This document shows, piece by piece, positions 22,254 through 57,845 of a stretch of 64,000 nt of DNA; position 1 is the stretch's first letter, and each line of letters opens with the position of its first letter. Under the pieces are notes generated by a model. That model was not told the origin of the DNA. It was given only the letters and a program-made list of their open reading frames with translations, and made no database searches. The DNA comes from a virus: positions 25 to 64,024 of the IMG/VR virus record IMGVR_UViG_3300030397_000361; one strand, written 5' to 3'. The translations under genes and the position numbers were made by a program.

Positions 22254-22257
22254 ACTT

Positions 22258-23372: not shown

Positions 23373-23390
23373 TAACGGTTGTGTTACAAT
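23362..23390 (+). promoter_or_regulatory. Promoter of the cassette HTH gene
   Basis: TTGAAT-17-TACAAT with TAACGGTTGTG in the spacer. Confidence 0.7.
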
Positions 23391-23412
23391 CTTGTCCAAG
23401 GAGGCGCTAATT

Positions 23413-23706
23413 ATGGACGCTATTAAAGACTTGCTGAAAGATTGGGACAGACTCAACAAGAGACAAATCAAGGAGCGGCTAATCACTCTTGTACTAGAGG
23501 GCAAGCAGGAGCCTATTTTGTCCGTTTCTGATATGGCCCAAGAGCTTGGCATTGCTGAAATCACCGTTCGGGTCAAAGCGGCTAAGAATGGCATCGGGAC
23601 GAAGGTAAATCCCAAAGCCTGGGTTTTCCGTCCAAGCGACGTTGATTTATTTAAGGCCATTCCAAGCACCCCAGGCCCGAAGCCGAAAAAACCAATAGAC
23701 GACTAA
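23413..23706 (+). CDS. HTH DNA-binding protein (excisionase/MerR-like HTH)
   Basis: AAGGAGG SD, start MDAIK; LSVSDMAQELGIAEITVRV. Confidence 0.75.
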   Translation: MDAIKDLLKDWDRLNKRQIKERLITLVLEGKQEPILSVSDMAQELGIAEITVRVKAAKNGIGTKVNPKAWVFRPSDVDLFKAIPSTPGPKPKKPIDD

Positions 23707-42610: not shown

Positions 42611-42642
42611 CAAAAAAGGCGGCTGAGTTGCCGCCTCTTGGT
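42611..42642 (-). terminator. Duplicated terminator, copy 1
   Basis: CAAAAAAGGCGGCTG-agt-TGCCGCCTCTTGGT; 29/32 identical to 44487..44518. Confidence 0.8.
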
Positions 42643-42935
42643 TAGTCGCTTGATACAACGCGCTTAATCCAATTCCAAGTACGCCATTGTCTAGTATTGT
42701 ATAATTCAGCGTTCTCATCATACCAGATACCAAACGCATTATTCCAAATTACGACTAGGTACTGATTAACGTAATCCTCTTTTGGAATATAAAACCAGTA
42801 CAGACCGATGATGCACAGCCCGCTTGGCAGAAACAATCCGATTGCATTATTCATTCGCGGGTTTTTGCGCTGATTATCGCTTTCGAATTCATCAATTACA
42901 TTTTGGTGACAGGGAGACCAGTTTAATGTCCACAT
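42642..42935 (-). CDS. Hypothetical membrane protein
   Basis: One TM segment. Confidence 0.5.
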   Translation of the reverse strand: MWTLNWSPCHQNVIDEFESDNQRKNPRMNNAIGLFLPSGLCIIGLYWFYIPKEDYVNQYLVVIWNNAFGIWYDENAELYNTRQWRTWNWIKRVVSSD

Positions 42936-43282
42936 TATGATAATGCCTTTCGTCTAACGTATTGGCTAAAATTCTCGCCTGTGCCATCAATAGCCATCTC
43001 AATTTTAGCTATCTCGGCCTCTGTGAATCGGATTGATTTTGATATTGTACCACCATCATCTGCTGCTGCCCCCACTATTGAGGCCAGTATAACCACATCA
43101 TCATCTCTCAAGTCGTTCTGTGGATTGTTTAGCGCATCGCTTACGGTCAGGTTCACCCGTTGCTGCAAGATCGGGCTGTTAGCGTTGGCGGCTTGGATAG
43201 TTTTAATTGCGTTGTTTGCGGCGCTCGATCCACCACGAGCTATGATGATCTGCATCGCCTTTATAATTGCTTGTTTATCCAT
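42935..43282 (-). CDS. Protein with C-terminal ribbon-helix-helix-like domain
   Basis: SKSIRFTEAEIAKIEMA...NFSQYVRRKAL. Confidence 0.7.
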   Translation of the reverse strand: MDKQAIIKAMQIIIARGGSSAANNAIKTIQAANANSPILQQRVNLTVSDALNNPQNDLRDDDVVILASIVGAAADDGGTISKSIRFTEAEIAKIEMAIDGTGENFSQYVRRKALS

Positions 43283-43643
43283 TGTATGCCTCGACTGATT
43301 GAATCAGTTCATCGCAGAATGATTTTACTTTTTTAGCAGATAGTGGCGACCACCATCCAGAATTAAGTGTCTGCCACTCGAATACTTCAATGACATTTTC
43401 TCGATAGGCTTGATGTCGATAATCGTGGCTAGTGTTTCCAACCTTTTCCAGATAAATTCGCGTCGATGCGTTTCGTGTGCTTGACGTGCTGCCACCCTTG
43501 CTGATCTGCAATCCCTTGGCATTGAGCATTGGAGCCAATTTTTTGGCGGTTTCGTCGATCTTTGCCAGGGCTTTGGCTTCGGTTCGTTCGGTGTATTTGG
43601 TGGGCAACTCACTGATTACATTTGCGATTGATTGAGCTTTCAT
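43275..43643 (-). CDS. Hypothetical protein
   Basis: GAAAGGAAACTGA SD region, shared with the gene at 56963. Confidence 0.65.
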   Translation of the reverse strand: MKAQSIANVISELPTKYTERTEAKALAKIDETAKKLAPMLNAKGLQISKGGSTSSTRNASTRIYLEKVGNTSHDYRHQAYRENVIEVFEWQTLNSGWWSPLSAKKVKSFCDELIQSVEAYNG

Positions 43644-43675
43644 CTCAGTTTCCTTTCGTAACTAACTGTTTATTT

Positions 43676-43710
43676 GTATTCTATTGTAGCACAAAAGAAT
43701 ACGGAGTCAT
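43676..43710 (-). promoter_or_regulatory. Promoter with an inverted-repeat operator
   Basis: ATGACT-16-TGcTACAAT; GTATTCT/AGAATAC arms flank the -10. Confidence 0.55.
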
Positions 43711-43738
43711 ATAGGCCATTTAGCCTAATACATATGTT

Positions 43739-44386
43739 CTATGCCCCCTCGACCCTCCCAACATCCACACACCAGCCGCGCCCCCGCTGTCCCATCACCC
43801 CCTCGACCTTTACGCAATCACCGGCACCAGCCGCGCCTACGTCACCCCGACACCACCATTCATTACCGCGATCATCGACGATGTACACATTGCAGATGCC
43901 GTCACGCCTGACGATGCGCCTGATCTGTCCGCTGACCACAATCTGTCCGCTGACTGGCATCGGCTTGCGTTGGCTGTGGTACAGACGACTAAAAGCCGCG
44001 GCTATTTGCGCCTCCGGTTCGCTCTCGGCTGATTCGCCGGTCAAATGCCTGATGAGTTTCGTGCCTGGTCCACTAATGCGCCACAGGAAACAGGCCACGT
44101 AATTCCTGGTCATCGGAATGCCGTCATCGTGGTATCTAAATGTGACAGACACCTCAACATAGCTATGCTCAGGCAGTACGCCGATGATGGCATAGCTCAG
44201 GTTGGCCGGGTTGACGGTCGCCGCCTGCATCTGTATCAGGCGATTATCGGCACTACTGCCCACGCCAAGCGGTGACATAAAAACACAGTCATCGGCTATC
44301 AGGTCACGCCATTTTTGCCAGTCTGCGGCGCGAAATGCCTCGTAATATTCGGTTGTTGCTTGTCTCAGCAATCCCTCAACGCTCAT
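43739..44386 (-). CDS. NTF2/SnoaL-like domain plus C-terminal OB-like domain
   Basis: YYEAFRAADWQKWRDLIADDCVFMSP; C-terminal GQIRRI...GDCVKVEG. Confidence 0.6.
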   Translation of the reverse strand: MSVEGLLRQATTEYYEAFRAADWQKWRDLIADDCVFMSPLGVGSSADNRLIQMQAATVNPANLSYAIIGVLPEHSYVEVSVTFRYHDDGIPMTRNYVACFLWRISGPGTKLIRHLTGESAESEPEAQIAAAFSRLYHSQRKPMPVSGQIVVSGQIRRIVRRDGICNVYIVDDRGNEWWCRGDVGAAGAGDCVKVEGVMGQRGRGWCVDVGRVEGA

Positions 44387-44486
44387 AAAAAAATGCCTCC
44401 ATTATCGAGGAGGCATTATATCAGGAAATCACGGTGTATCTGTTGGGGGTCTATCAGGTGTCTATCGTTTGTCTGTCACGTTGCGG

Positions 44487-44518
44487 CAAAAAAGGCGGCT
44501 GGGGTGCCGCCTCTTGGT
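44487..44518 (-). terminator. Duplicated terminator, copy 2
   Basis: CAAAAAAGGCGGCTG-ggg-TGCCGCCTCTTGGT. Confidence 0.75.
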
Positions 44519-44729
44519 CGCAAGAAACACAAACACTGTTATGTTTCCCGTGACTCTCTGCCTCTTCGACTTCTCGCGCCTTCGCTTGAGCGAACAACTC
44601 CCAATTGTTATCTGACGGATTACTGCAAAACGCTTCCCAAGCCGCATCAGCTTCTACTGCTAGCATTGATAATTCTTTTTCCATAATTCGGCTCCCTTAG
44701 TCGACTAAACTAGTAGGACTTAATTTTCG

Positions 44730-45167
44730 TTAAGTCACATCGACTTTCGATAAAAGTGATTTCACTTCTCTGTATATTTCATCGCGTGAAGGCAAGACAT
44801 ATTGATCCGGCCAATGCTCTAAGACGCCGATGGTTTGGTCTACGGCATTCGCAACGCTAACTTTGATAGCAAATTGCAAATCTTGAGTTGCGCCTTCGTG
44901 CCAAAAGCCACCCGACTGAGTTACCCACACGATACCGTTCAGACAATCCATATGGACATATCCGTTTATTCTCGATTGAAATGTGTCTCCATCAATGATA
45001 ACTCGATTATTTCGCCGCTTCACCCTGGCTTTTAGCACGCCAACTTTGGTTGTAAAGAAACCTTCTATTTCGTCGCCATCTTCTAAATTTCGGCACTCTG
45101 CCAGCAATGGGGAAGGCCAGACCATACTATCTAAATCCTTATAATCATCTATTTCAAATTTCATCAC
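44730..45167 (-). CDS. Hypothetical protein
   Basis: 145 aa, GAAGG SD. Confidence 0.6.
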   Translation of the reverse strand: MMKFEIDDYKDLDSMVWPSPLLAECRNLEDGDEIEGFFTTKVGVLKARVKRRNNRVIIDGDTFQSRINGYVHMDCLNGIVWVTQSGGFWHEGATQDLQFAIKVSVANAVDQTIGVLEHWPDQYVLPSRDEIYREVKSLLSKVDVT

Positions 45168-45429
45168 GCACCTTCTTTATGATTGATTCTGGATTTCAGC
45201 AACTCGTTAGCCATATCACACCGCCTTATTGACCGTGATGGTATCATTGTGGGCACCATCTTTACTTATATTTATTTCTAATTCGTAATGGTCTACAATG
45301 TACATTTTTAGGATTTTCCAAAGTTCGGTCAAGGTCTTTAATTGCTGGTAATTGTCGCCGCCTTTGAGTTTGAATCTGCATTTAAGTTTCATTATTTGCT
45401 CCTCTAAAAGACTTAAGTAGGTTTATGTA

Positions 45430-45633
45430 TTATTCGATTAGCCCAAGCCGCTGGGCTAACTCCTGTATCGCTTTTCTGATTCCTGCATCGCGGCTGATGT
45501 CTAATTTCTTGGCTATCTTCCAGGCTAACTCCTGATCTTGGCCGTATAGCCTCACGTTGGTTCGCTTGGCGGTTTCGGCTTTGGCGGCGTTCCGGTTGCC
45601 AGCCGGTGCGCCGCCTTTGCGTTTAGGTTTCAT
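45430..45633 (-). CDS. Small ribbon-helix-helix-like regulator
   Basis: KRKGGAPAGNRNAAK tail; RTNVRL strand; ISRDAGIRKAI helix. Confidence 0.7.
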   Translation of the reverse strand: MKPKRKGGAPAGNRNAAKAETAKRTNVRLYGQDQELAWKIAKKLDISRDAGIRKAIQELAQRLGLIE

Positions 45634-45637
45634 CTAA

Positions 45638-45841
45638 TTAGATTGGCGATACAACGGTGCATCCAAAGTCATTGGCCACTTTTTTCAATTGATCAACATC
45701 TGATGTCCAAATCTCTTCGCCGTCGCCGCTTTGTTCATCGGCTGGTATAGTAGTAGTAATATTCAGAGTGCTAACGTACTTCAAAAAATCAACAAGTTGG
45801 TCACTATCGTTTGTCCAAAAAACACTAACCTTAATCATCAT
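45638..45841 (-). CDS. Hypothetical protein
   Basis: 67 aa, AGGAG SD, first gene after the promoter. Confidence 0.65.
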   Translation of the reverse strand: MMIKVSVFWTNDSDQLVDFLKYVSTLNITTTIPADEQSGDGEEIWTSDVDQLKKVANDFGCTVVSPI

Positions 45842-45884
45842 TTTGCTCCTTTTTCGGCTAATACTGCATCACTTAACTATCTAA

Positions 45885-45926
45885 AGTATAACCTATTTTA
45901 GTTGTTTTGTCAACCCCAAACAACTA
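45885..45926 (-). promoter_or_regulatory. Consensus promoter with an inverted-repeat operator
   Basis: TTGACA-17-TATACT; TAGTTGTTT/AAACAACTA arms flank the -35. Confidence 0.8.
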
Positions 45927-46068
45927 ACTTTAAGGTTAGGAAACATATTGCCCTTAATGCTAATCTCGACCTCTCTGAACCAAAGCGGCCATATCGCATC
46001 GGCTAACCTGGCTCTCAGTTGATTGCTATTTAGTTGTGGCTGGTTGCAGGTTGGGCACGGTTGCTCTA

Positions 46069-46506
46069 TCATATCTGATAATCACCTAGCAATTGCTCAT
46101 AAAAATCATAGATCAGCATCGCCTCACGGTTACTGGCATCGACCATCATTACCAGTTCGGGAAGTTTGCCGTGCCATCGAACTATGGCAATCTGCAACGT
46201 TTGCCCGTTGTCGCGCTTTGCGAGCGACAATGTTTCGCTGCCGCCAATCCTGCGCCCTTTGTAGTAATGATACTCTATTTTCTTCCACCACTGCGCGTCA
46301 TATTTCAGCCACGCTCGCCACTCATCGTATGTGATGCCGCAATGGTTGGCGCAACCTGAACAGGCACAAGCCAGAAAATCATCCTCGTTTTCCGGCTCCC
46401 AGCCTTCGCCGCACCAGTTGCGTTTGAAATCATCTGGCAGCGGTGCGAGTAGTCGCTTAATCTCTGATATTGTTTTCATTGAGTTTTCCTGAGAGCAGTA
46501 TGCCAA
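46069..46506 (-). CDS. Hypothetical Cys-containing protein
   Basis: CACSGCANHC cluster; true start probably MKTIS. Confidence 0.55.
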   Translation of the reverse strand: MAYCSQENSMKTISEIKRLLAPLPDDFKRNWCGEGWEPENEDDFLACACSGCANHCGITYDEWRAWLKYDAQWWKKIEYHYYKGRRIGGSETLSLAKRDNGQTLQIAIVRWHGKLPELVMMVDASNREAMLIYDFYEQLLGDYQI

Positions 46507-46792
46507 TCTTCGTCAATCCGTCAATCTGTCCCCGCCAAAACATCTGTGCGCGCTCGAATCTAACCGCATCACCAACCGATTCGGCCTTGCTCGCCTTGCG
46601 CTCGAATTCGTCAAGAAACTCTTCCCCGATCTCCTGTATTGCCCGCGCTATCAGCAGTCGGATGTCGTCTGTTCCAGGTAGCGATACCAGATGATCGAGC
46701 CAGTCACTAGCCGCTTGGCACTCCTCACCGACATCATTCTGATTTTCGCTCAGGAATGATAGTGCGGTCTGGATTGTGTCATAGTGGCTCAT
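46457..46792 (-). CDS. Hypothetical protein
   Basis: 111 aa helical ORF. Confidence 0.6.
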   Translation of the reverse strand: MSHYDTIQTALSFLSENQNDVGEECQAASDWLDHLVSLPGTDDIRLLIARAIQEIGEEFLDEFERKASKAESVGDAVRFERAQMFWRGQIDGLTKIGILLSGKLNENNIRD

Positions 46793-47051
46793 CGGGTGCC
46801 TCGCTGGCTATAAAATTATTCTCAATCAAATGCCGCTTGATTATGGCTGTCATCAATGCCATAAGTCGATCAAAATCGCCATATACATGCGAGGTTTCAT
46901 CTAATACCATCTGAGACGAAACCCGCTCTTCGCTATCGACAAACATTCTCACCACTATTTGATGATGCCGATGATCGAGCGGGTCAGGATGATTGCGCGC
47001 CGCCGTGATTGTTATGCGCTCGATTGGCTTTTTTTGCGCCTTAAACATCAT
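46779..47051 (-). CDS. Hypothetical protein
   Basis: 90 aa, coupled to neighbours. Confidence 0.55.
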   Translation of the reverse strand: MMFKAQKKPIERITITAARNHPDPLDHRHHQIVVRMFVDSEERVSSQMVLDETSHVYGDFDRLMALMTAIIKRHLIENNFIASEAPDEPL

Positions 47052-47265
47052 TCGGCCTCTCTGGATTGTCCGTGAATATCAATAATATCCACCATTACAG
47101 GCAAATCAAATCTAGTCAGTTCGTTGCTCGTGTATCGGTTACGCAAATCGACTGATGTGCTGATAAGCCTGCATTGCTCCCAATGGCCGGTAGCAATAGG
47201 CAGGCCGCAAGATTCGCAGGTCATACTGGCTATGCTTTGCTCGAAATGGATCGGACGATTGCTCA

Positions 47266-47637
47266 TCATTCGCCCTCGCTTGCTGTCGTTTCCAGCGCAA
47301 TTTCTTCGATTTCGCAATCCTCGCAGATGAGAATAGTTTCGTGTTCGCCAGCCACGTTTTTTTGCTTGCTTTTCCACAAACTAGCTGGCATCTCAGCAAC
47401 GTGTCCGCAAGAAAAACGAACTGTTACGGTTTCGCGCTCTGGCACACCCATCCAGGCATCATTGAGCGCAGCGGCTAATGTGTCGCCCTGGCCGTGATAG
47501 GTGTCACTATCGCCAACCTGATTAACTGCGATCTCGAAATGCCAATCGTCGCCAGGGCTGAAAGTGATTTCGTATCCTTCGGCTATTAGTTGGATCATCA
47601 TCTGTTCTATGTTAGTCATTTTAGGTTGTCCTTTCAA
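47266..47637 (-). CDS. Hypothetical protein with zinc-finger-like C-terminus
   Basis: FSCGH...ICEDC. Confidence 0.55.
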   Translation of the reverse strand: MKGQPKMTNIEQMMIQLIAEGYEITFSPGDDWHFEIAVNQVGDSDTYHGQGDTLAAALNDAWMGVPERETVTVRFSCGHVAEMPASLWKSKQKNVAGEHETILICEDCEIEEIALETTASEGE

Positions 47638-47640
47638 GTA

Positions 47641-47749
47641 TTATTATAAGGCTATTAAAAGCTATTAGTAGTTCAGGTATCATTTTGACACTTGTATACA
47701 AAGGTCATTTTGATACTGTCGAAAACTTCGTGAGTATCATTTTGATACT
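47641..47749. promoter_or_regulatory. Candidate plasmid-type origin: three palindromic repeats plus an AT-rich tract
   Basis: GTATCATTTTGACAC (47677), GGTCATTTTGATAC (47703), GTATCATTTTGATAC (47734); AT-rich 47641..47670 with GCTATTA x2. Confidence 0.65.
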
Positions 47750-48471
47750 TTCGATAATCCTGCCTGGTCATCCGGTGTCAATGGCTCATCTAAGTATACA
47801 ATAAATTGCGTGCCTTCATTGCGTATCTTGTCACGACCAGATGAGTATTTTATGATCCGCATATCAGCGATGAAGTGACCCAAAAGCTCGTTTTGGAATG
47901 AGCCATCCTTGTTGCGTTTCAAGGCCCGCTTGATTGTCGGCTCCGAAACGCCAAGTGCATCGGCCAGCGTTTTATATGTGGTCTTGGTGGTATTGCGTTG
48001 CGATTTATGATGGCACAATTGGCGCAATTCACGAACCAATTCAGACAGCAATGGGCCGAGCAGCGGTCGCCATTTTTCGCGAAAGTAGCGCGTTGCCGCC
48101 CATTCTTTGCGATCTGGCTGGATGATGGCGTTTTCTGCGTTATGATATGCACCAACGAACTCGCGTTCGGAATCGTCGTCCGATTCTGCGTCAGGCAAGT
48201 GAATCGCCTTCGCCTCAGCCTTCACGAAAACCAGAGTAAAATCGACGCCATGCACGCTCTTGACTTTCTGCCTGACAATGCCTGACAGCCTGTTTTCTAT
48301 CATTTCCAGATTGGCCGACGCTGGCACCGACACGATGAGCCTGCCGCCGTCAATAGTCGCCACAGAGCCTAAAAAATGCGTGTTGAATGATCCGGCTGGC
48401 ATCGAGCCTTCGAGCGATTCCAGCACCGCTGGCCATTGACTATCAAACTGATTCGTGCTATCGTTGTCCAT
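47737..48471 (-). CDS. DnaA N-terminal domain fused to HTH (second replication initiator)
   Basis: WPAVLESLEGSMPAGSFNTHF...LIVSVP...MIENRL (DnaA domain I-like); C-terminal TYKTLADALGVSEPTIKRAL. Confidence 0.78.
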   Translation of the reverse strand: MDNDSTNQFDSQWPAVLESLEGSMPAGSFNTHFLGSVATIDGGRLIVSVPASANLEMIENRLSGIVRQKVKSVHGVDFTLVFVKAEAKAIHLPDAESDDDSEREFVGAYHNAENAIIQPDRKEWAATRYFREKWRPLLGPLLSELVRELRQLCHHKSQRNTTKTTYKTLADALGVSEPTIKRALKRNKDGSFQNELLGHFIADMRIIKYSSGRDKIRNEGTQFIVYLDEPLTPDDQAGLSKVSK

Positions 48472-48517
48472 AGGAATCTCCTAAATAGTATGCAGTAGCA
48501 AAAGCGGCTGATGTGCG

Positions 48518-48898
48518 TCAGCCGTTTTTGTTTTGGTCTGCATCGTCAATAATTGCCTTGATCCGCTCCAAGACTTCAACGGAATAATCGTAATTATCCA
48601 AAGCGCCAATGACCTCGGCTTTGATTTGGCGATGTCGCTGGTATTGCTGATAATCCGTATTGGATTTTATTATATCGTCCGTCAACGGTTCGGCATACGA
48701 TCTTCCGCTGTTCCATCGTGCTCCATTGTCAGAGCCTATCAGGTATCCATTCCGTTTCCGGAATCGTTTATCTTGGCAAATAACCTGAGTTTTGGTTACT
48801 CGATCCACAGTAAATATTTTGTAGTGCATCATTGAACCAAATGAGTGGTGAGGAACCGCTATTTTGTCGCCCGGTTTTACGTCATTCAATACGCTCAT
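48518..48898 (-). CDS. Hypothetical protein
   Basis: VDRVTKTQV...RFRKRNG motif; ends NKNG. Confidence 0.65.
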   Translation of the reverse strand: MSVLNDVKPGDKIAVPHHSFGSMMHYKIFTVDRVTKTQVICQDKRFRKRNGYLIGSDNGARWNSGRSYAEPLTDDIIKSNTDYQQYQRHRQIKAEVIGALDNYDYSVEVLERIKAIIDDADQNKNG

Positions 48899-48917
48899 TA
48901 TCTAATCCTTCCCGGCC

Positions 48918-49118
48918 TCAGCCGTTTTTGTTTTTACGCATCTTCTCATACTGCTCAAGCATCCATTTGGTGCGACCTGAATTGGTATTGCCGTATGGAC
49001 TACCCGCCGCCCTGTATTTGTCCAGTGACGTGTCAACAGATTTCAGCAAGCGGTTGAATTGCCGATTAATGCGCCAAGTATCAATGATGGCCATTATTAA
49101 AGATAGTAGTTTAATCAT
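48918..49118 (-). CDS. Hypothetical protein
   Basis: Ends NKNG; shares a 17-bp 3' end with the gene at 48518. Confidence 0.55.
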   Translation of the reverse strand: MIKLLSLIMAIIDTWRINRQFNRLLKSVDTSLDKYRAAGSPYGNTNSGRTKWMLEQYEKMRKNKNG

Positions 49119-49128
49119 TGGGTTTCAC

Positions 49129-49344
49129 TCATTCCTTGTGTTCCTGCCAGTCGCAGCTTATACCACCTTGGTCAACAACCACGCACAGCATGCTATCGTC
49201 AACCTCGATCAGCCGATATCTTCCAGCGACCTCTATAGTTTTTATACGTTTGTCGCCAGAGTTTGATTGTGCATCTTGCCGAGGCAATGGCGCACAGCTT
49301 GTGAGGAGCAAGGTCATTGCCAATATGATGGCAATCGGTTTCAT
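49129..49344 (-). CDS. Putative lipoprotein
   Basis: MKPIAIILAMTLLLTSC lipobox. Confidence 0.7.
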   Translation of the reverse strand: MKPIAIILAMTLLLTSCAPLPRQDAQSNSGDKRIKTIEVAGRYRLIEVDDSMLCVVVDQGGISCDWQEHKE

Positions 49345-49574
49345 CCCGCCTCGCTTTCGGCGTTAGCCGCTTGGTCTAATGTGCCAATGCTCGCGTATTT
49401 GATTTCGCTGTGCCTAATACGCATATTGCCAGCCCAGCCGAAATGAATTTCATACAATTGATCTGACGGATTCTCAACCGCTTCTAACAGTTCTCGGATT
49501 CTGCCAATTGACCCATTATTCGTGATGACTGTATCGCCCTTTGAAAATCGTTTCATTGCTCTAAATCCTTTCAT
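49341..49574 (-). CDS. SH3/KOW-like small protein
   Basis: FSKGDTVITNNGSIGRI...YEIHF. Confidence 0.55.
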   Translation of the reverse strand: MKGFRAMKRFSKGDTVITNNGSIGRIRELLEAVENPSDQLYEIHFGWAGNMRIRHSEIKYASIGTLDQAANAESEAG

Positions 49575-49830
49575 CTAATCGCGTCAACAGATCATCAGCG
49601 CGGCTATCATATTTCGATTTCAGTTGGCCCATTCGTTCGCGCAACTCGGCGGCGGTTGCTGGAACCAAACCTGGATCGGCCATTACAATCTCGGTCTGCC
49701 GATGCTGGTAGACATTTTTGCACCAGCGGATCTCGTAGGCGATTTTAGGACTACTATCAGATGTCAGGACATCCTCAATAATGCCAACATAGGCATTGTG
49801 GAATCGTACAATATCACCTGGCTTGTACAT
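49561..49830 (-). CDS. SH3/KOW-like small protein
   Basis: YKPGDIVRFHNAYVGIIEDV...YEIRW. Confidence 0.55.
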   Translation of the reverse strand: MYKPGDIVRFHNAYVGIIEDVLTSDSSPKIAYEIRWCKNVYQHRQTEIVMADPGLVPATAAELRERMGQLKSKYDSRADDLLTRLDERI

Positions 49831-49846
49831 TATTCATATCCCTGTG

Positions 49847-50167
49847 CTAGTAATTGCTCGACCATGTCGACACTTCGGTTTCGGGCTTTTCTCGGGCCGT
49901 GCCTACGATGTAGTCGAATTCAATCACTGGTGCTCTTTGAGAGACTTCTTTTAGGATTTCCGCGAACCTGTTTTGACATTCTTTTTCGGTGCCTTCGAAC
50001 AGGAGAAGATCGTTGGAAATCGTTCTTCCCTCATGATTCCACCAGGCCCCGATTGGACCTGACGCTTTGATCTCGCACTCGAAGTCATCGTATTCGTTAT
50101 TGTACTGAATCTGGATCAGTGATCCAGTATTGATATTCAGAGCTCTTCCGTCTCTAACCATCCACAT
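49847..50167 (-). CDS. Hypothetical protein
   Basis: 106 aa, CAGGAG SD. Confidence 0.65.
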   Translation of the reverse strand: MWMVRDGRALNINTGSLIQIQYNNEYDDFECEIKASGPIGAWWNHEGRTISNDLLLFEGTEKECQNRFAEILKEVSQRAPVIEFDYIVGTAREKPETEVSTWSSNY

Positions 50168-50332
50168 AATTTTTCTCCTGTTGGGCCTTGCCTATTTTTA
50201 TCAGACCAGTGTTTTCATTCTCTACAAAATACACGCACATTACAAAAACCTCGCTACATATGCTATAGTAGCCTTGTTACCCCTTCGCCCTGGCTTGGTG
50301 GTCGAGGTGAGGGCGGTAACATTTAGCCACTA

Positions 50333-50557
50333 TCAAGCAGTTTTATTCTCCACTTCCAAATCATATAAATCAGTGACAGGAACATCAAGCGCCGTTGCGA
50401 TGTCCAGCAACGTGCCGATTGGTGTTGTCCGCTTGATGACTGCCTGATTCTGCAAGCGAAGCACCACGCGATAAGTCAGCCCGGTTTGCTTGCTGATTAC
50501 GTGCGGGTTTGTATCTCGTTCCTTTATTAGCTGCTTGATTTTATTCCGCATTATCAT
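50333..50557 (-). CDS. Cro/CI-type HTH repressor
   Basis: IKQLIKERD...ISKQTGL...LLDIATALDVPVTDLY; AAAGGAGG SD. Confidence 0.85.
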   Translation of the reverse strand: MIMRNKIKQLIKERDTNPHVISKQTGLTYRVVLRLQNQAVIKRTTPIGTLLDIATALDVPVTDLYDLEVENKTA

Positions 50558-50585
50558 AAGCCTCCTTTCGTAATAAGGTGATCTT

Positions 50586-50677
50586 ACTATACCATAGTGT
50601 TCACGACAAGTCAACCACGAATGTGTATACATATTCAAAGTTAGTACTTGACAATGTATACACATTCGTGGTATAAT
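50586..50677. promoter_or_regulatory. Divergent promoters with paired 19-bp operators (genetic switch)
   Basis: Rightward TTGACA-18-TATAAT; leftward TTGACT-17-TATAGT; ACCACGAATGTGTATACAT (50614) is the exact reverse complement of 50654..50672. Confidence 0.85.
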
Positions 50678-50943
50678 TCTCATACAGTCAAGCAACACCA
50701 GACTGGGCAGACCCGTAAGCACATCGACACCACGACAGGCACAAATCGGGCGGCAAAAAGGCCGACAACTGATCGTAGAGGACTAGACCGCGTAAAGGGA
50801 ACCGAACAGAGCAATAGCCGCGAAGTAGCTCTAAAAAAATCGGCTCAGAGGGTGGAAGCCCCAAACGCAAAGAGGCCGGTGGTTGTGATGAACCACCGGC
50901 CCCGATATCCAAAACCAACGTGTAATTAGTAAAGGATCGTAAA

Positions 50944-51180
50944 ATGACTGTAGCACAACTAGAAGCACTTGACAAACCGGGCCAATCGGCTTGTCTCATT
51001 AATGGTCGTCAAGGATGGCTACCAACCCATAAGGAAATGCTGGAATATCTCGGCATCATCCCCTTGGCCGAAGTTTACGCAGAAGCATCAGACGCGATGC
51101 AACGCCAGATGTCGGGTAAGCGATCCGAGCCAGTCGGGGAGGCTGGCTATCTGATCAGTAACGATGTCATACCGTTCTAG
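50944..51180 (+). CDS. Hypothetical protein
   Basis: First ORF after the ~260-nt leader; AAGGA SD. Confidence 0.65.
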   Translation: MTVAQLEALDKPGQSACLINGRQGWLPTHKEMLEYLGIIPLAEVYAEASDAMQRQMSGKRSEPVGEAGYLISNDVIPF

Positions 51181-51324
51181 GGGCAAGGCACAATCAACGG
51201 TTTGCGCGTGGTGTCAGCGTGAGGCTGGCATCACGCCAAAGGCAAATGAAAGTCACGGAATCTGCGAGAAACACGCAGAACAAATGAGACAAGAAATCGA
51301 GGCCGCGAGGCGGCGAAAGAGGAA

Positions 51325-51573
51325 ATGATGGACAATACACATTTAAGCGGCGTTGAGTTTGCCAAAGAATTGCAGCGATTGCAGGACGATATCCATTTGT
51401 CTATCAATGGTCTTCATCATTCCTACGCTATTCAGCAGATTGTGGCTACTGAACTTTCAAAATCATCTCTGAACGTTACCGCAGATATTGCAGCCAGGTT
51501 AATCGCCGTTGCTTATGTCAACGGCATCGACGATGGGAAAAATCAACTTAAAGAAGATATTAGCAACCTGTAA
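51325..51573 (+). CDS. Hypothetical protein
   Basis: 82 aa, GAGGA SD. Confidence 0.6.
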   Translation: MMDNTHLSGVEFAKELQRLQDDIHLSINGLHHSYAIQQIVATELSKSSLNVTADIAARLIAVAYVNGIDDGKNQLKEDISNL

Positions 51574-51626
51574 ACAAAATAGCCGCTGGCAACCGTCAGT
51601 GGCGAGTATAAATAGGAGTAATAACA

Positions 51627-52712
51627 ATGGCTAAGAAGAAACAAGAACCAACCGTGATTATTGATGAGAAGGACAACGATGTATTATCATTTTTGTTTGA
51701 TGGCGATACCGGGCCAGATGATAGCGATTATTGGCAGGAGCGATATAAGCGAATCCAGTGGAACAACAAAGAAAAATGCTGGGAATTTCCCCTGGCACAT
51801 TGGGCGGGGACTTACATCGAACAAGCCTATGATGTGCAGGACATCAAGCATAACAAAGGACAATCCGTTGAGAGCGGGATGCTAGTCCCTGAGATTTCAT
51901 TGTCCGTTTTGTCATATCGGACGACCTGGGAATCCTACATTGACGAAAAAGTTGTCTACACTGCCAAGCCCGATTTTGATGATGGCAACACATGGTCAAA
52001 GCGTTACAATTTCTTGGTTATGGCTAAGGTCGACGATTGGGCGTGTGACGAGCCAGTTGTTGTCACAGTCAAAGGTCACACCGGCGCATATCTGGAATCT
52101 GGCTTGAACAGTTACCGAAAGAAAATGATACAATTGGGGATTTCGTTGGGTGGTCAAAAAATGCCAGGGTATGTATACTGGTGCGCGATGTCAGCCGGTG
52201 ACGAGCAGCTAGTCGGCAAGCGCGAAAAATCCGAGATTTATCCACCTGCACCCATCATCGACAGCATGACCGACTTAAATGATGATGCTATTGGAGCCTT
52301 GCTATCATCGGCATATATCGGCCAGGAATTACATAGCCGAATCAAATCCGTTTTGTTTGATGAAGGAGAGCAATGGCGAACAGAGCATATTAATGCACCG
52401 ATGTTGGGAAGCGGCGATCCGCCCGAACCTGTAGCCGAACTGTTGCCCGGTGGCGTTGTGTTTTTGCCTGACCTGTCAAAGGCGAGTAAAGGCGACTGGA
52501 TTAAATGCGCTATGTCAACCGGCATTTTCCGTCACGAGAAACACGCCGGGAACGCATTGGCCAAGGTTCTGACCAAGGTCGGATACGGGTCTGGCAAGGC
52601 CGAGCAGTGGGAAGCATATCGTAGCGATATTGAACGGCGATACGCTAAGACAAGCGAGGCCGATGAAGAAATGGCCGAAATTGTAGAACGTCAACGGATG
52701 TTGACTGAGTAG
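51627..52712 (+). CDS. Hypothetical protein (possible ssDNA-binding/recombination protein)
   Basis: 361 aa, AGGAG SD; aromatic-rich beta core; function inferred only. Confidence 0.55.
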   Translation: MAKKKQEPTVIIDEKDNDVLSFLFDGDTGPDDSDYWQERYKRIQWNNKEKCWEFPLAHWAGTYIEQAYDVQDIKHNKGQSVESGMLVPEISLSVLSYRTTWESYIDEKVVYTAKPDFDDGNTWSKRYNFLVMAKVDDWACDEPVVVTVKGHTGAYLESGLNSYRKKMIQLGISLGGQKMPGYVYWCAMSAGDEQLVGKREKSEIYPPAPIIDSMTDLNDDAIGALLSSAYIGQELHSRIKSVLFDEGEQWRTEHINAPMLGSGDPPEPVAELLPGGVVFLPDLSKASKGDWIKCAMSTGIFRHEKHAGNALAKVLTKVGYGSGKAEQWEAYRSDIERRYAKTSEADEEMAEIVERQRMLTE

Positions 52713-52744
52713 CATAACCCAATCGCCAGCGGCTTCGGTCGCTG

Positions 52745-53098
52745 GTGGAAAGTGAGAGAATGATGCACATCTTTACGACAAATGAAGTTGACCGGAAAAA
52801 CGTAAAAAACCGAGACAAAGTGCCAACCGCGTCGTTGTACGATGTCGAGCGGAAAATCCAGTATTGCATGTGGATAAACAATGAATTGATCCGGCTCTGG
52901 CTGTACGTTCCCGGCACAATTTCGGAAAACGATTATCCGCAAGTGAGCTATGAAGATCACGAGGCATTAGACTTTTGGGAGCAATTGTGCGACATCGTTG
53001 AAAGTGATGGCGACAATTTTCTGGTAGTATCCGCAATGCGAGAGGTATTGACCGCTGGCCGTGATGCCTGGATGGGACCGGAGCCAGAACAAGAATAG
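52745..53098 (+). CDS. Hypothetical protein
   Basis: 117 aa acidic ORF. Confidence 0.55.
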   Translation: MESERMMHIFTTNEVDRKNVKNRDKVPTASLYDVERKIQYCMWINNELIRLWLYVPGTISENDYPQVSYEDHEALDFWEQLCDIVESDGDNFLVVSAMREVLTAGRDAWMGPEPEQE

Positions 53099-53116
53099 CA
53101 CCGATAATGGTGAAAA

Positions 53117-53323
53117 GTGAGTGAGATGATGCCAAACTTAGGCGATATGACAGTTGATCTTGAAGAGAGCTATACCGACGATTACGAATTGCTTGCGGTG
53201 CTGAAATCTGTCAGGGCCGATATCCTGAATTTGCACAAACAAGCGTGTGAGGTTGGGATGACAGACGAAGTTTACACGCCGCTGGCTAAAATGATTGATG
53301 CCTTGAAGGAGCAGGCAGAATAA
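53117..53323 (+). CDS. Hypothetical protein
   Basis: 68 aa ORF. Confidence 0.55.
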   Translation: MSEMMPNLGDMTVDLEESYTDDYELLAVLKSVRADILNLHKQACEVGMTDEVYTPLAKMIDALKEQAE

Positions 53324-53390
53324 CCCAACGCAAACCAAAAGAGCCTAGCGTCTGCTAGGCTCTGAGCCATATAACTAATTGAGGTAGGAT

Positions 53391-54368
53391 ATGACTATGG
53401 AAAGTATACGCAAGTCACCCGATTTTAACAACCTAATACCAGTCGGATTCGACCCTGGCAACGGTTTCGCCAAAATCGCGTTACTAGGCAAAGTCGCCAA
53501 GCTTCCAGCCAATTTCAGCTACACTCAGCCCGATGGCGAATTGTCGGCCAAAACGCTGGCCAGGATCAAGCCCAAAGCTTTTTCAATTATCGCAGATGGC
53601 CGCGAACTGTGGTTCGGCCTCGATAGCCTGAGCAACGGCAATGGCAGAGCTATCGACCAGGCCAAATATCACGCTGACTATTTGCGCCCATTGTTTGCGG
53701 CCTCATTGGTGCAATGGTTCAAACAGCATCGGCAAAGCCCTGATATGTTGGACGGCAAGCGGCTGAATGTTGTGGCGTCAATGCCGCCCGAGCTATACCA
53801 GGACAAAGCGACGCGCACCAAAACCGAACGGGCCTATGCTGAAACATTCAACCATCGTATTGACTGGCAGGTCAAGAATAGCCAGGTTGACACGTTTCAG
53901 CTATTCACGCAGTTTCAACAGGTCACGCCGGAAACGCTCACGTATATGTCGGTCAACCTGGCTAAAGCTGGCTACACCGTGGTGTTTGACCTCGGTTATG
54001 GGACGCTCGATATAGCGATCTTCGCGGCTGGCAGTGACGTGCCAGTGATGACAAAGAGCTTGAATAAAGGATTGCTGCACGCATTTTCGAGCATTAATGC
54101 GCTGGCAGTCAACCAGGTCGAACTTGATATTCTGCGCTCCAAATCCTACGACCGGCTGAACGATTACTTCAATGAGGTTCGCACCATCGTGCAAACAGTG
54201 ACGCGCAAACTGCCTGAGCCATTGAAGCTGGTAGGCATCGGCGGCGGCGTAAATCTGATGAGCAAAGCAGCACGCGATAGCTTCAACCTGGCGTTTAGTG
54301 GCTTGATATTTAAGGACGAATTTACAAACGCCAGGGCAAGCGAGAGGGTTGCCAGAAGTGCGTTATAA
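53391..54368 (+). CDS. parM: ParM/StbA actin-like partition ATPase
   Basis: Phosphate-1 GFDPGNGFAK; VASMPP; phosphate-2 FDLGYGTLD; adenosine GIGGGV; FTNARA. Confidence 0.88.
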   Translation: MTMESIRKSPDFNNLIPVGFDPGNGFAKIALLGKVAKLPANFSYTQPDGELSAKTLARIKPKAFSIIADGRELWFGLDSLSNGNGRAIDQAKYHADYLRPLFAASLVQWFKQHRQSPDMLDGKRLNVVASMPPELYQDKATRTKTERAYAETFNHRIDWQVKNSQVDTFQLFTQFQQVTPETLTYMSVNLAKAGYTVVFDLGYGTLDIAIFAAGSDVPVMTKSLNKGLLHAFSSINALAVNQVELDILRSKSYDRLNDYFNEVRTIVQTVTRKLPEPLKLVGIGGGVNLMSKAARDSFNLAFSGLIFKDEFTNARASERVARSAL

Positions 54369-54597
54369 AAAACTATCGGCTAAATTATCACGCAATAGCC
54401 ACGCGGATTTGATAGCGTGGCTTGAGCAAAACGACATCAATGTAAACCAGTTGATTATTCATCTACTCTATTGCGCGATGAATATGGGTCTGACCGCCTC
54501 GCCCCCTCTGCCAGTCGAGAAACCCGAGGTTGAAACGGTCGGACTAAATGACAGCGACCCGATAGCCGATATAGCCGACTTTTTAGACGGAATATAG
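54349..54597 (+). CDS. ParR-like adaptor
   Basis: Overlaps the parM stop; basic strand-helix N-terminus and acidic C-terminal tail (DPIADIADFLDGI). Confidence 0.6.
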   Translation: MPEVRYKKLSAKLSRNSHADLIAWLEQNDINVNQLIIHLLYCAMNMGLTASPPLPVEKPEVETVGLNDSDPIADIADFLDGI

Positions 54598-54612
54598 AAG
54601 CGAGGTGACAGG

Positions 54613-54825
54613 ATGACAGAGGCAACCGTAGATGAAGTTCGCGAGGTATTAAGACTTGCCAAGACCAATCGCGTAATCCGGCAATTGCTTGAGCTTGCCA
54701 TTATCACGCATTCTGCAACCACAAGCATTGATGAAAACATTGACTACGACACGCTGGATCAGCACATTGCCAATCACATTGACGAGGCTGTGCGGTTGGC
54801 ACGAAAAAGGAGGCTGGACGTATGA
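54613..54825 (+). CDS. Hypothetical protein
   Basis: 70 aa ORF in the operon. Confidence 0.55.
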   Translation: MTEATVDEVREVLRLAKTNRVIRQLLELAIITHSATTSIDENIDYDTLDQHIANHIDEAVRLARKRRLDV

Positions 54826-55043
54826 CACCGAAGGGATTTGCGGAGCAGTGGTATAGCTGGTCGATTGAAGCCGGTGACGATCCCGAGGACGTTGAGCGCA
54901 GGATTGCAGGCTTGGCGGCTGAGATAGAAAAGTATTTCGTTTCGCGCAAAACATATGATGCCGTGGTTGAAAATTTCAGAGCCTACGTGGACGCTATGAC
55001 ACCTATCATTCAGATGATAGAGGATGACAATGACACTCTCTAA
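54822..55043 (+). CDS. Hypothetical protein
   Basis: 73 aa, AGGAGG SD. Confidence 0.6.
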   Translation: MTPKGFAEQWYSWSIEAGDDPEDVERRIAGLAAEIEKYFVSRKTYDAVVENFRAYVDAMTPIIQMIEDDNDTL

Positions 55044-55251
55044 ATCATCCGATCTGATTGTGGCGTTCTGGCTGTGGCTGGCTTTGTTGCCGGTTGAGCG
55101 GTCGATATATCTGTATCGCTCGATCCGTCACGAAGTTATTGCGCCACGGCCAGCGGTATCAATGTGGCTCGACCGCGGGCATTATGCAGCGGTTGCGCTG
55201 GTTAGTTTGATTGCAGTAATCGCGATTCCGTCGCCGTTGGCGGTCGCGTGA
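55024..55251 (+). CDS. Hypothetical membrane protein
   Basis: Two hydrophobic segments. Confidence 0.5.
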   Translation: MTMTLSKSSDLIVAFWLWLALLPVERSIYLYRSIRHEVIAPRPAVSMWLDRGHYAAVALVSLIAVIAIPSPLAVA

Positions 55252-55264
55252 AAGGTGTAGGAGG

Positions 55265-55894
55265 ATGGCTAAACTAGATTATAAGCAGATGACATTTGCA
55301 TACGTTGGCGGCAGTATTGCCACAGTCACAACCGGCGCGGTAAGTGCCGGCATATGGTCAATGATCGGTGGGCATCCTCATTATGGTCTGGCCATCGCTG
55401 GCACTTGGATGCTGTTTATAGGTGGGCCGTCTGTATTTGTCGCTTCAAATACACTGCTCGAAGTGCTTGGGCAGAAACGGCCAAAGCAGATCAGCGTCAG
55501 TCCTGGCAGCAGTGGTCGCAAAGTGCCGATCCATTACGGCGGCGGTAAGACATCGCATGTGTTCCTGAATGAGTTCAACCCGTTCAACCGCAAGCGCGAA
55601 GTGATCGAGGTCGAGCCGCCTGAGTTGCCTATGTCGTTTGAAGTTGGATTGCAGGTCGTCACGCTTGATGCGCTCGACACGTTTTTGTATCGCGCTTGGC
55701 GCAGGCAATTATCCAACAAGCCAGGCTTGAGCCGGTCATACTGGCTGAACAACCAGCGATGGAAACGAGCCGAATACGAGGCAACTATTTTTTTGCTCAA
55801 CTCTGCAAATCTGATAGGGGGGAGGGCTGGCAACCAGTCGGGCAAACTCATCGCGCCGCCCAAGTTGGCGCTTGAAGCGATCAAGGCCATCTAG
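55265..55894 (+). CDS. Membrane protein with soluble C-terminal domain
   Basis: Two N-terminal TM segments; AGGAG SD. Confidence 0.65.
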   Translation: MAKLDYKQMTFAYVGGSIATVTTGAVSAGIWSMIGGHPHYGLAIAGTWMLFIGGPSVFVASNTLLEVLGQKRPKQISVSPGSSGRKVPIHYGGGKTSHVFLNEFNPFNRKREVIEVEPPELPMSFEVGLQVVTLDALDTFLYRAWRRQLSNKPGLSRSYWLNNQRWKRAEYEATIFLLNSANLIGGRAGNQSGKLIAPPKLALEAIKAI

Positions 55895-56226
55895 CCCTCC
55901 TATCACGTGCGGGCATACGTGGGCTAATGCTTTTGCAACTAGGCCCACAACGACCCGCAACGACCCGCGCCTGCCAGCAACGACCGGCAATTCAAGACCG
56001 ATATTCAATAATACATAACAACCCTTAAGTATTATAGAAAGGATAACGAACATAATGACTAAACAAGAGGCTTACGGCCTTGCCCTTCAAGCAATCGAAT
56101 TTACCAAATCAAATGCGTCGCTAAGCAAAGAAGATTATGAAGAGATGACCGAGGCCTCAAAAATTATTGAGGCGCAGATTATTATTGAAAATGTGATGTC
56201 ACACAAAAACCCGAAAGGATGATCTA

Positions 56227-56556
56227 ATGTCTAAATCAACCTACTACATACCAACCTGCGTCCCAGGAAAATACCGAATTCTAGAATTCGAGCATAATTG
56301 CGACGACGACACAACCGCCGCAACTAATGCCGCATTGCTGGCGGCATCCTGTCGCCATCGGCCCAAGCCTGAAACATTCCCCGAAATCCAAATGCTACGC
56401 CGCGTCATCAAAATCGCAACCAATCCACTGCCAGCGATCCTGAAGCGGTGCTGCAATCCGCACACGACAACGGCAGAGCCGCAACCGGATCAGCCAGAGC
56501 CGATGATACTGGTTGACGGCTGGCCAGTCAGAGCCGAGCAACCAGCAAGGTTATAA
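56227..56556 (+). CDS. Hypothetical protein
   Basis: 109 aa, AAGGA SD. Confidence 0.55.
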   Translation: MSKSTYYIPTCVPGKYRILEFEHNCDDDTTAATNAALLAASCRHRPKPETFPEIQMLRRVIKIATNPLPAILKRCCNPHTTTAEPQPDQPEPMILVDGWPVRAEQPARL

Positions 56557-56567
56557 TGGCCCCAAAG

Positions 56568-56600
56568 CAAAAGACCACCATTGCGGTGGTCTTTTTTGTT
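56568..56600. terminator. Rho-independent terminator
   Basis: AAAAGACCACC-ATTGC-GGTGGTCTTTTTT. Confidence 0.8.
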
Positions 56601-56645
56601 GCTGTACGCTAACGCGGAATTTCTAGTGTCGCGTGCCAGGTCGCC

Positions 56646-56698
56646 AAGGTAAGCAGCAACACAAGCGAAGGTAAGCAGCAACACAAGCGAAGGTAAGC
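56646..56698. repeat. 22-bp tandem repeat (2.4 copies), intergenic
   Basis: AAGGTAAGCAGCAACACAAGCG x2 plus AAGGTAAGC. Confidence 0.9.
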
Positions 56699-56878
56699 CA
56701 GGGGTTAGGAGGCGCGGAGCGAAGGGGCAACCCGGCACGCAGGAGAGAGAAATTGAACGGAGGTTCATTGTAAGCCACGGGTATTATACCGCATCTGAGG
56801 CGAGTTAACAATTGCGGGTTGGTCACAGTTGGCTTACGGTTTACTCACATTTTGTTTATGAAGTTCATAGAAACTCAC

Positions 56879-56919
56879 TTGATTATTTGCTTGACAAGAA
56901 ATCAAAAATAGAGTATAAT
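56879..56919 (+). promoter_or_regulatory. Consensus promoter with an inverted-repeat operator
   Basis: TTGACA-17-TATAAT; TTGATT/AATCAA arms flank the -35. Confidence 0.85.
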
Positions 56920-56962
56920 TTAGATAGTTAAGCGAAACAGTAGCAAGAAAGGAAACTGAAAG

Positions 56963-57217
56963 ATGACTAACTTAAACCCAAGAGTGCGAACACAGGAGCT
57001 CATGGATAATCTGGATAAAGTCTGGAGAAACGTAGAATTCAATAATGAGCCTGACAACGCAATTGATTTAGCATTTATGGAGTGCTTTGCAATGGAATTA
57101 GGCGAAGAGCACAAGTCAGATGGGAAACCAAATGATCCACCATTCAAAAATTCAAACCTACGACATGCTTTTAGTGAAGGGTGGCTAGGATGGGATAGAA
57201 ACGGATTAGCAGTATAA
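56963..57217 (+). CDS. Hypothetical protein
   Basis: GAAAGGAAACTGA SD region; 84 aa. Confidence 0.7.
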   Translation: MTNLNPRVRTQELMDNLDKVWRNVEFNNEPDNAIDLAFMECFAMELGEEHKSDGKPNDPPFKNSNLRHAFSEGWLGWDRNGLAV

Positions 57218-57267
57218 CCAATCAAGACCTGAGCCAAGTCACTAAACTGGCTCGAAAGGATCACGAG

Positions 57268-57519
57268 ATGACTACTAAAACCCAAACCATAGCAGGCCAC
57301 GAAATCACCCTAGAAACCGGAAAGAATTACATCGCAACCAGACCAGCCGCAACCCGCCGTAACCAAGTGTTCACCGTAACAATCATCCGCAACACACAAA
57401 ACGCCATCATTCAAAAGGGCGCAGGCTTCAAGGTGCGCCGCCTGAGTTACGATCAAGCCAATGACCTGATCAACGCATTTAACAATGGCGATTGCTCATT
57501 CTCAGGAAGGGACTGGTAG
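57268..57519 (+). CDS. Hypothetical protein
   Basis: 83 aa, AAGGA SD. Confidence 0.65.
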   Translation: MTTKTQTIAGHEITLETGKNYIATRPAATRRNQVFTVTIIRNTQNAIIQKGAGFKVRRLSYDQANDLINAFNNGDCSFSGRDW

Positions 57520-57522
57520 CCG

Positions 57523-57720
57523 ATGACCAAACACGGCGGCAAACGACCAGGCGCTGGCAGGCCAGCAGGCACGACCAAACCTGACAAGCGCCCGATGCTA
57601 CAGGTCAGAGTAGCACCCGCAACGCTCGAATGGTTCACGAGGCAGGCAGAGCTAAACGGGATGAAACTAGGAAGATGGTTCGATAAATTAGCAGATGAAT
57701 GCCGAAAGGCGAAAGGATAG
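57523..57720 (+). CDS. Small ribbon-helix-helix-like regulator
   Basis: GGKRPGAGRP tail; MLQVRV strand; TLEWFTRQA helix. Confidence 0.7.
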   Translation: MTKHGGKRPGAGRPAGTTKPDKRPMLQVRVAPATLEWFTRQAELNGMKLGRWFDKLADECRKAKG

Positions 57721-57818
57721 GATGAATGCTGAAAGCCTTGGGTACATTCAAGGCGAATCAATTACCCCCTAGCTGAAGCTAGGGGCATCCTTGAAAGGAA
57801 AGACGGTGAAGAAACCCC

Positions 57819-57845
57819 AAGAGCCTCAATCGAGGCTCTTTTTTT
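57819..57845. terminator. Terminator at convergent arms
   Basis: AAGAGCCTC-AATC-GAGGCTCTT-T tract; second hairpin CCCCTAGC/GCTAGGGG at 57766..57785. Confidence 0.75.

Follow-up and report, generated by a model that had tools for sequence, protein, structure and literature searches.

The DNA analyzed here, referred to as the window, is a stretch of 64,000 nucleotides (positions 25 to 64,024 of IMG/VR virus record IMGVR_UViG_3300030397_000361), which covers nearly all of a 64.4-kb linear virus from an aquatic metagenome. It encodes a terminase, head and tail proteins, a ParM-like protein with its partner, and a DnaA-N-like initiator, whose sole plasmid match comes from Leptolinea (26% identity, E 4e-6) and hints weakly at Chloroflexota as the phylum of the host. 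A preliminary description of this DNA had proposed that at least four small operons, of which it named units A to D, follow one plan, in which a promoter with its own operator repeat drives orphan cargo genes and a small DNA-binding gene comes last, as in loci that couple anti-CRISPR genes (acr) with genes of anti-CRISPR-associated regulators (aca). The whole plan is indeed present in unit C (56879-57840), which comprises a consensus promoter, an operator, two orphan genes, a ribbon-helix-helix (RHH) gene in last position and a terminator, whereas units A, B and D deviate from it (Table 1).

Table 1. Features of the four units, in coordinates of the window (aa, amino acids; ORF, open reading frame; pI, isoelectric point; L numbers denote loci outside the window).
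Unit	Feature	Position	Strand	Remarks
C	Operator, TTGATT...AATCAA half-sites straddling the -35 hexamer	56879..56905	+	Read from sequence; motif recurs at the head of family operons elsewhere
C	σ70-type promoter, TTGACA-17-TATAAT, 12/12	56891..56919	+	
C	Purine-rich leader; has a 14-mer in common with B and a 13-mer ribosome-site element in common with A	56919..56959	+	Similar leaders in L001, L023, L026
C	Cargo C1, 84 aa, acidic (pI 4.7), orphan	56963..57217	+	Missing from homologous cassette L005
C	Conserved structured element (hairpin, possible H-type pseudoknot) beside C2 ribosome site	57226..57253	+	
C	Cargo C2, 83 aa, basic, small unnamed family	57268..57519	+	
C	Regulator C, 65 aa, GGxRxGAGRP tail and RHH	57523..57720	+	Last gene of the unit
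C	Bidirectional terminator closing the unit	57819..57840	.	Near-identical copy closes L005
A	Promoter (extended -10) with 12-bp inverted repeat over -10	43676..43710	-	Leader resembles L006, L023
A	Cargo A1, 122 aa, orphan	43275..43643	-	
A	Regulator A, 115 aa, C-terminal NikA-like RHH	42935..43282	-	Pfam PF21983 E 2e-4, below cut-off; Atlas RHH clusters, scores <0.9
A	97-aa ORF, start overlapping the regulator A stop	42642..42935	-	Followed by terminator 42617-42637
B	Perfect 10-bp inverted repeat around -35	45898..45927	-	Promoter 45913-45885
B	Cargo B1, 67 aa, acidic (pI 4.1), predicted ferredoxin/ACT-like fold	45638..45841	-	No specific match
B	Regulator B, 67 aa, GAPAGNRNA tail and RHH-like body, predicted homodimer	45430..45633	-	No terminator after it
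B	58-aa ORF, good ribosome site; probably on one transcript with regulator B, which it follows	45216..45392	-	No hairpin between
D	Promoter, amidoligase, GGCT-like gene, 141-aa ORF without assignment, terminator-like hairpin, C26-like amidotransferase	20919..23372	+	
D	Second promoter with 11-mer of promoter 20919, then HTH_17-like gene	23362..23706	+	Promoter 23362-23390

All four promoters lie where they had been predicted, and they match the consensus at 12/12 (C), 11/12 (B), 10/12 (D) and 9/12 positions (A, with an extended -10); between 41 and 58.5 kb, perfect TTGACA-17-TATAAT promoters occur only twice, one of them in unit C. The predicted regulator types were found as well, RHH-like in units A, B and C and HTH_17-like, i.e., of helix-turn-helix (HTH) type, in unit D. 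The idea that each promoter carries a repeat of its own fared less evenly: the repeats are distinct, and those of A (12-bp arms with one mismatch, matched by 1% of 300 shuffles) and B (perfect 10-bp arms, reached by 0/300) exceed chance, but the 6-bp arms of repeat C are reached in 53% of shuffles and are insignificant if taken alone, although conserved across genomes, and unit D has no significant inverted repeat (19% of shuffles reach it), only an 11-mer common to its two promoters. Likewise, the regulator is cleanly the last gene in unit C, while RHH-A and RHH-B are followed by more genes.

Comparison between genomes carries the case for unit C. Regulator C has 26 homologs besides itself (E <=0.001), which are detectable by full HMMER search only, as a word-based search returned the query itself. 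They form an unnamed RHH family. By profile, it resembles RHH structures of the CopG type (E 9e-6 for one of the CopG family) and of antitoxins; its most conserved part is GGxRxGAGRP, with a family tail of GGxRxGAGR(P/K). The operator reads TTGATT-N6/7-TTGACA-N3-AATCAA, i.e., TTGATT-N15/16-AATCAA around the -35 hexamer. A DNA pattern built from the window and locus L005, and searched blind to proteins (with a looser version for GTDB), led to a family C gene downstream in eight unrelated loci overall. The only match in JGI metagenomes heads a promoter, an unrelated 59-aa gene, a family RHH gene and a terminator; of two matches in IMG/VR, one lies within a coding gene, and the intergenic one is followed by four small genes and a family RHH gene as the fifth. 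In GTDB, most of the 120 loci are chance matches, but six have a family gene, always on the same strand and <=1.6 kb downstream, which amounts to 6 family genes in 264 kb of downstream DNA and none in the remaining 1.43 Mb (p about 1.4e-5). The operator-regulator pair thus identified occurs in genomes of Desulfobacterota, Melainabacteria and Verrucomicrobiota; four genomes that were checked (2-5 Mb) contain one or two family matches each.

Starting from the protein, 12 independent loci with the GG-tail were read, and the full operator stands at the operon head in three of them (L008, L009, L021) and half-intact in L171. With such proportions, the pairing of operator and regulator is genuine, but only part of the family shows it. 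The regulator is the last gene in about two thirds of the operons read. Cultured phage records hold no credible member of family C, a Desulfobacterota-wide search with a narrow profile returned only the genome already known, and a limited literature search, which is no proof of novelty, found nothing on the tail motif in phages or on the operator-regulator pair.

What stands between operator and regulator varies. L005, which contains the closest homolog of regulator C, shares with unit C a near-identical promoter and operator, the RNA element, the RHH gene and the terminator, but its cargo is different. Conversely, six homologs of cargo C2 were found, and among the four that were read in context three come first behind a promoter; in L026, a C-like promoter and leader lie directly upstream. 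Behind these C2 homologs stand an HTH_17 gene in L024, a different RHH-like gene in L026 (read by eye; the contig ends within it), other small genes in L025 and nothing in L023. With regulator C, this makes three different regulators that accompany C2. Taken together, the comparison supports well that the operator predicts the regulator family and that cargo and regulators have been shuffled among frames, so that the suggested portable and autoregulated character appears well founded for unit C and plausible for A and B, while unit D does not fit. In L028 (minus strand, from 4737), a short GC hairpin with a ribosome site behind it recurs between the cargo genes; such hairpins are possible junctions for cassette shuffling.

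The leaders were compared as well. An exact leader had been claimed for two units, and the 13-mer GAAAGGAAACTGA does occur exactly twice in the window, in the leaders of A and C. This is modest evidence by itself, because chance pairs of 13-mers are frequent in the window and GAAAGGA is the usual ribosome site of the phage. Overlooked at first was the 14-mer TTTAGATAGTTAAG, which follows the -10 directly in units B and C. It has three matches in viral DNA, one of them in a promoter, and since that one lacks a regulator the 14-mer was rejected as a marker of the family. L006, L023 and L026 have leaders of the A and C kind, and in an unrelated AT-rich phage a promoter-leader (L001:10329-10347) joins the B-type 14-mer to the A/C-type ribosome site, which argues that the leader design is widespread or convergent.

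Two family operons contain relatives of known anti-CRISPR (Acr) proteins. In Desulfovibrio piger ATCC 29098, three genes follow the operator: one of 127 aa, then a homolog of AcrVA2 (E 1e-20) in which the HxR motif is conserved, and directly after it the family RHH gene, at L078:5232-5438 (record NZ_DS996354.1). A second operator heads the next operon, and the locus adjoins an integrase and a DUF3560 gene. It forms part of an island at a prophage end (L078:2832-7702) with two long duplicated promoter-operator cassettes. In L171, a run of nine genes that ends in the RHH gene includes an AcrIII-1/DUF1874-like gene (for the family identity, see bioRxiv 10.1101/778746) with an aligned GH motif; this match is weak (E 2e-4 to 2X4I; STIV B116-like E 3e-5, below the Pfam cut-off). 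By guilt of association, the kind of search that had been proposed, both genes speak for an acr-aca-like logic of family C; regulators A and B offer no homologs to follow. Other cargo of family operons is without assignment or generic accessory, e.g., DUF932, ASCH and P22_Y8K6-type genes, with DUF3560 nearby.

On the strength of these comparisons, it seems reasonably likely that units C and B, and probably also A, are exchangeable accessory operons on the plan of acr-aca loci. A near-consensus σ70 promoter with a purine-rich leader would give strong transcription of the small cargo and require no phage factor, which makes early expression likely. The small RHH protein translated from the same transcript would then dimerize, bind the inverted repeat that overlaps the promoter, and shut the promoter off; the link of regulator and operator is shown by co-occurrence, for unit C only. 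Promoter, operator, regulator and terminator form a frame within which, as the comparison shows, the cargo is exchanged. Because the cargo pool of family C includes conflict genes, the cargo in the window most likely acts on host defense or competing elements, and we infer a counter-defense role for it.

Several observations weigh against this reading. The operator is absent from the other GG-tail loci among the 12, within the 1.5-6 kb available, and L171, with its AcrIII-1-like gene, retains it only half-intact. In the remaining third of the family operons the regulator is not last: it is internal in L005, L010, L012, L019 and L028, and first and leaderless in L004. Operators A and B are known from this genome only, because no homologs of regulators A and B were found in viral scans (a word-based search with B returned itself only). 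Acr relatives are present in 2 of roughly 20 family operons, and AcrVA2 homologs are mostly found without Cas12a and include the conjugation inhibitor FinQ (bioRxiv 10.1101/2022.11.29.518452), for which reason "conflict gene" is a safer label than "anti-CRISPR". Finally, the acr-aca likeness is found at the level of the family, where one operon has an AcrVA2/FinQ-like and another an AcrIII-1-like gene, while none of the window cargo A1, B1, C1 and C2 matched a known inhibitor or Acr in Pfam, PHROGs, phage records, fold libraries and, for C1, NCBIfam, searches that a new Acr would escape. In particular, phage records yielded nothing for A1 and C2, Atlas scores of A1 are <=0.80, the best fold match of C2 (Z 3.8) is nothing specific, and B1 resembles a fold of the ferredoxin/ACT-like type, a generic one (many near-ties, the best at Z 8.2), from which no function follows. 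A motif in C1 that resembled RMF by eye is unsupported by any profile and was discarded.

These gaps leave room for autoregulated early or accessory operons whose cargo is not directed against defense at all and serves host takeover, competition between elements or neutral turnover, with Acr relatives as occasional passengers. Most family cargo is generic or without assignment, AcrVA2 homologs have roles outside CRISPR, and no window cargo resembles an inhibitor; however, relatives of two different Acr families stand in two independent family operons, and newly found anti-defense proteins are usually without a recognizable homolog (Bhoobalan-Chitty et al., 2024, PMC11065993), so that we regard this alternative as rather unlikely. 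A more skeptical explanation takes the palindromes for sites of a host- or phage-wide regulator, or for a by-product of strong AT-rich promoters, with RHH genes merely frequent in early operons. Repeat C is indeed insignificant by itself, the strand residues of the RHH vary among loci that share the operator, and the leader motifs occur in an unrelated phage without a regulator (L001). TTGAT/ATCAA equals the half-site of FNR and would also suit a host regulator; an FNR box proper was ruled out by the spacing, which is 17-18 bp here and 4 bp in the FNR box. Against by-product or host sites, the pair recurs in genomes of several phyla, with no more than one or two family members per genome, the family is rare among viruses, with no gene in 991 kb of unrelated viral sequence, and eight tail-less MobC-like RHH loci have no such operator in the 1.5 kb upstream, which renders this explanation improbable.

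Gene order is also compatible with type II toxin-antitoxin modules of the BrnT/BrnA kind, in which a toxin is encoded upstream of a promoter-repressing RHH antitoxin and which here would favor plasmid-like persistence of a prophage. Weak matches connect members of family C to the antitoxin models BrnA and TacA and to RHH structures of antitoxins, and the phage possesses a ParM-like gene with an RHH partner (53391-54597). Yet the regulator family stands behind unrelated cargo of one to nine genes, and the same cargo stands before unrelated regulators or none; with cargo and regulator reassorting in this way, a fixed cognate toxin is not to be recognized. Most family members moreover are without an extra toxin-binding segment and no cargo matches a toxin family, so that a toxin-antitoxin function appears very improbable. 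A CasPR-type effector role was likewise considered, and dropped, as the CasPR paper makes no mention of RHH proteins.

If the units are accessory operons of the acr-aca type, the question arises which part of the regulator reads the operator. Among loci with the same operator, the strands differ (MLQVR, VLNVR, MYSFR, TLATR, MVNIR, YVAAR), while the Gly/Arg arm is identical in type; in L006, an RHH protein 52% identical to regulator C has a B-type tail and a different palindrome, which is repeated on the next promoter. A constant operator with variable strands, and a change of both tail and palindrome in L006, suggest that the arm may contribute to site recognition in the manner of an AT-hook, which, if true, would be unusual for RHH repressors. 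Many GG-tail proteins without the site speak against this. A bolder proposal, drawn from the same observations, is that RHH proteins with the GGxRxGAGR tail constitute an undescribed, multi-phylum Aca-like family that reads its operator mainly by the arm and not by the RHH strand, that operator and tail can serve as bait for counter-defense genes in little-studied hosts, and that C1, C2, B1 and A1 include new inhibitors; we consider it speculative and would not expect it to hold in full. The two regulators that had been credited with similar Gly/Arg N-terminal tails in fact have different motifs, GGxRxGAGRP in C and GAPAGNRNA in B. An analogous pairing of a GAPxGNxNA tail with a TGTT...AACA operator (unit B, L006) is unsupported, as such a gene was found at 0/115 viral pattern matches, a weak test because a -10 is present at only 4/115.

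The general design of acr-aca operons is already known, and Aca1-13 are HTH regulators of such operons. Like these, the units combine a strong promoter, an operator, small cargo in first position and a regulator that is often last; unlike these, units A-C use RHH instead of HTH proteins, and no Acr homolog was recognized in the window. Two features of acr-aca loci are found in the window itself, namely a regulator within the operon (A, B, C) and an inverted repeat on a strong promoter (A-C, not D), and a third, the co-occurrence of the regulator family with acr homologs, at family level (2 of about 20 operons). The closest known system is Aca14, an RHH-type anti-CRISPR-associated repressor for which repression is proven and whose reported partners are AcrIF23, AcrIF6, AcrVA3 and Csx20 (Feussner et al., NAR 2026, PMC13551039, which also gives Aca1-13 as background; bioRxiv 10.64898/2026.07.27.740549). 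Family C shares with Aca14 (WP_005725436.1, compared by description) the small dimeric RHH protein, the operon with small conflict genes and the AT-rich inverted repeat on the promoter. As at Aca14 loci, the site recurs on a neighboring operon in D. piger; L006 shows this with a repeat of its own. The two differ in that the Aca14 repeat overlaps the -10, as does that of unit A, whereas repeats C and B straddle the -35, and in that the Aca14 model has a long helical extension and family C a Gly/Arg arm. In archaeal viruses, anti-defense genes share early regulatory sequences, and one motif together with Aca8 was proposed for many genes (Bhoobalan-Chitty et al., 2024, PMC11065993); the repeated strong promoter and leader before small orphan genes could be used as bait in the same way, but each unit here has its own repeat and its own regulator. 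Fold, dimer and the expected binding to a promoter palindrome also connect the regulators to the autorepressors Arc, Mnt and CopG and to RHH antitoxins such as BrnA and TacA, from which family C is set apart by its conserved Gly/Arg arm, variable strand residues, variable upstream cargo and the lack of a fixed toxin partner.

What is added here is a concrete regulator-operator pair across phyla with a cultured example, D. piger ATCC 29098, which has two operator copies and AcrVA2/FinQ-like cargo. Should binding be confirmed, a single DNA motif together with a short protein motif would bring to light many operons of uncharacterized small genes, in hosts with almost no known anti-defense proteins, probably including Chloroflexota.

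For unit B, the RHH assignment rests on a dimer model. The predicted homodimer of regulator B scores 0.54, against 0.00 for the best control (the mark is passed by 21/30 solved homodimers and 0/23 single chains), with >=90% contact agreement between runs and pLDDT >=69, and its interface (residues 21-31 and 51-60) is as expected of an RHH protein; since RHH dimers are solved, the model may owe its score to likeness to these. Regulator B matches the family C profile with a probability of 2.9% and is a remote relative at best. A CCTAACCTTAAAG-like motif lies upstream of the -35 in unit B (45928-45940) and in L005 (~2655), 14 and 24 bp away and hence one helical turn apart, and a shorter variant, ACCTTAAA, is found at L023:~1700; it may be a site for a host activator or of UP-like kind. 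A 215-aa gene (43739-44386), which lies upstream of unit A and behind a terminator, is the likely source of a SnoaL/DUF4440 match.

Unit D is a separate kind of unit, an enzyme cassette. Its cargo, previously called orphan, includes an amidoligase (PF12224, E 6e-21; phrog_2443, E 3e-25), and the neighboring genes are, from their motifs, presumably GGCT-like and C26-like enzymes. Phage clusters of amidoligase (PF12224), gamma-glutamyl cyclotransferase and amidotransferase were reportedly described in 2009 from genome comparison; unit D has the same enzyme set, but it is compact and has an HTH gene under a second promoter. The HTH protein probably controls both promoters. The internal terminator-like hairpin is at 22702-22725, and a long and very stable hairpin (z -7.1) at 21770-21865 separates the amidoligase gene from the GGCT-like gene. 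The sequence GGCCATAGGTACTAT (20896-20910), which precedes the unit D promoter, has an exact copy upstream of the promoter of a C2 homolog (L026:~515).

Further elements surround the genes of unit C. The structured element at 57226-57253, for which Rfam has no match, also occurs at L005:2743-2790, L014:11135-11157 and L015:4705-4727. As a putative H-type pseudoknot, it would consist of a GAC/GUC stem and a loop, GAGC(C)A, that pairs with U(G)GCUC, where the window copy has a matched insertion of C and G. It precedes cargo genes in the window and scaffold-like head genes in two other phages. The spacer after regulator C (57720-57818) is structured (z -4.3 overall) and has a hairpin (57765-57785) and a 16-codon ORF; L005 carries a 65-aa gene at this position, and the spacer is possibly a remnant of lost cargo. 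Just upstream of the unit, a 31-bp direct repeat with a 22-bp period occupies 56646-56698. The other 12/12 promoter is part of a region (50586-50677) where divergent promoters and inverted repeats of 15-19 bp adjoin an XRE-like gene (50333-50557), which is likely a lysis-lysogeny switch.

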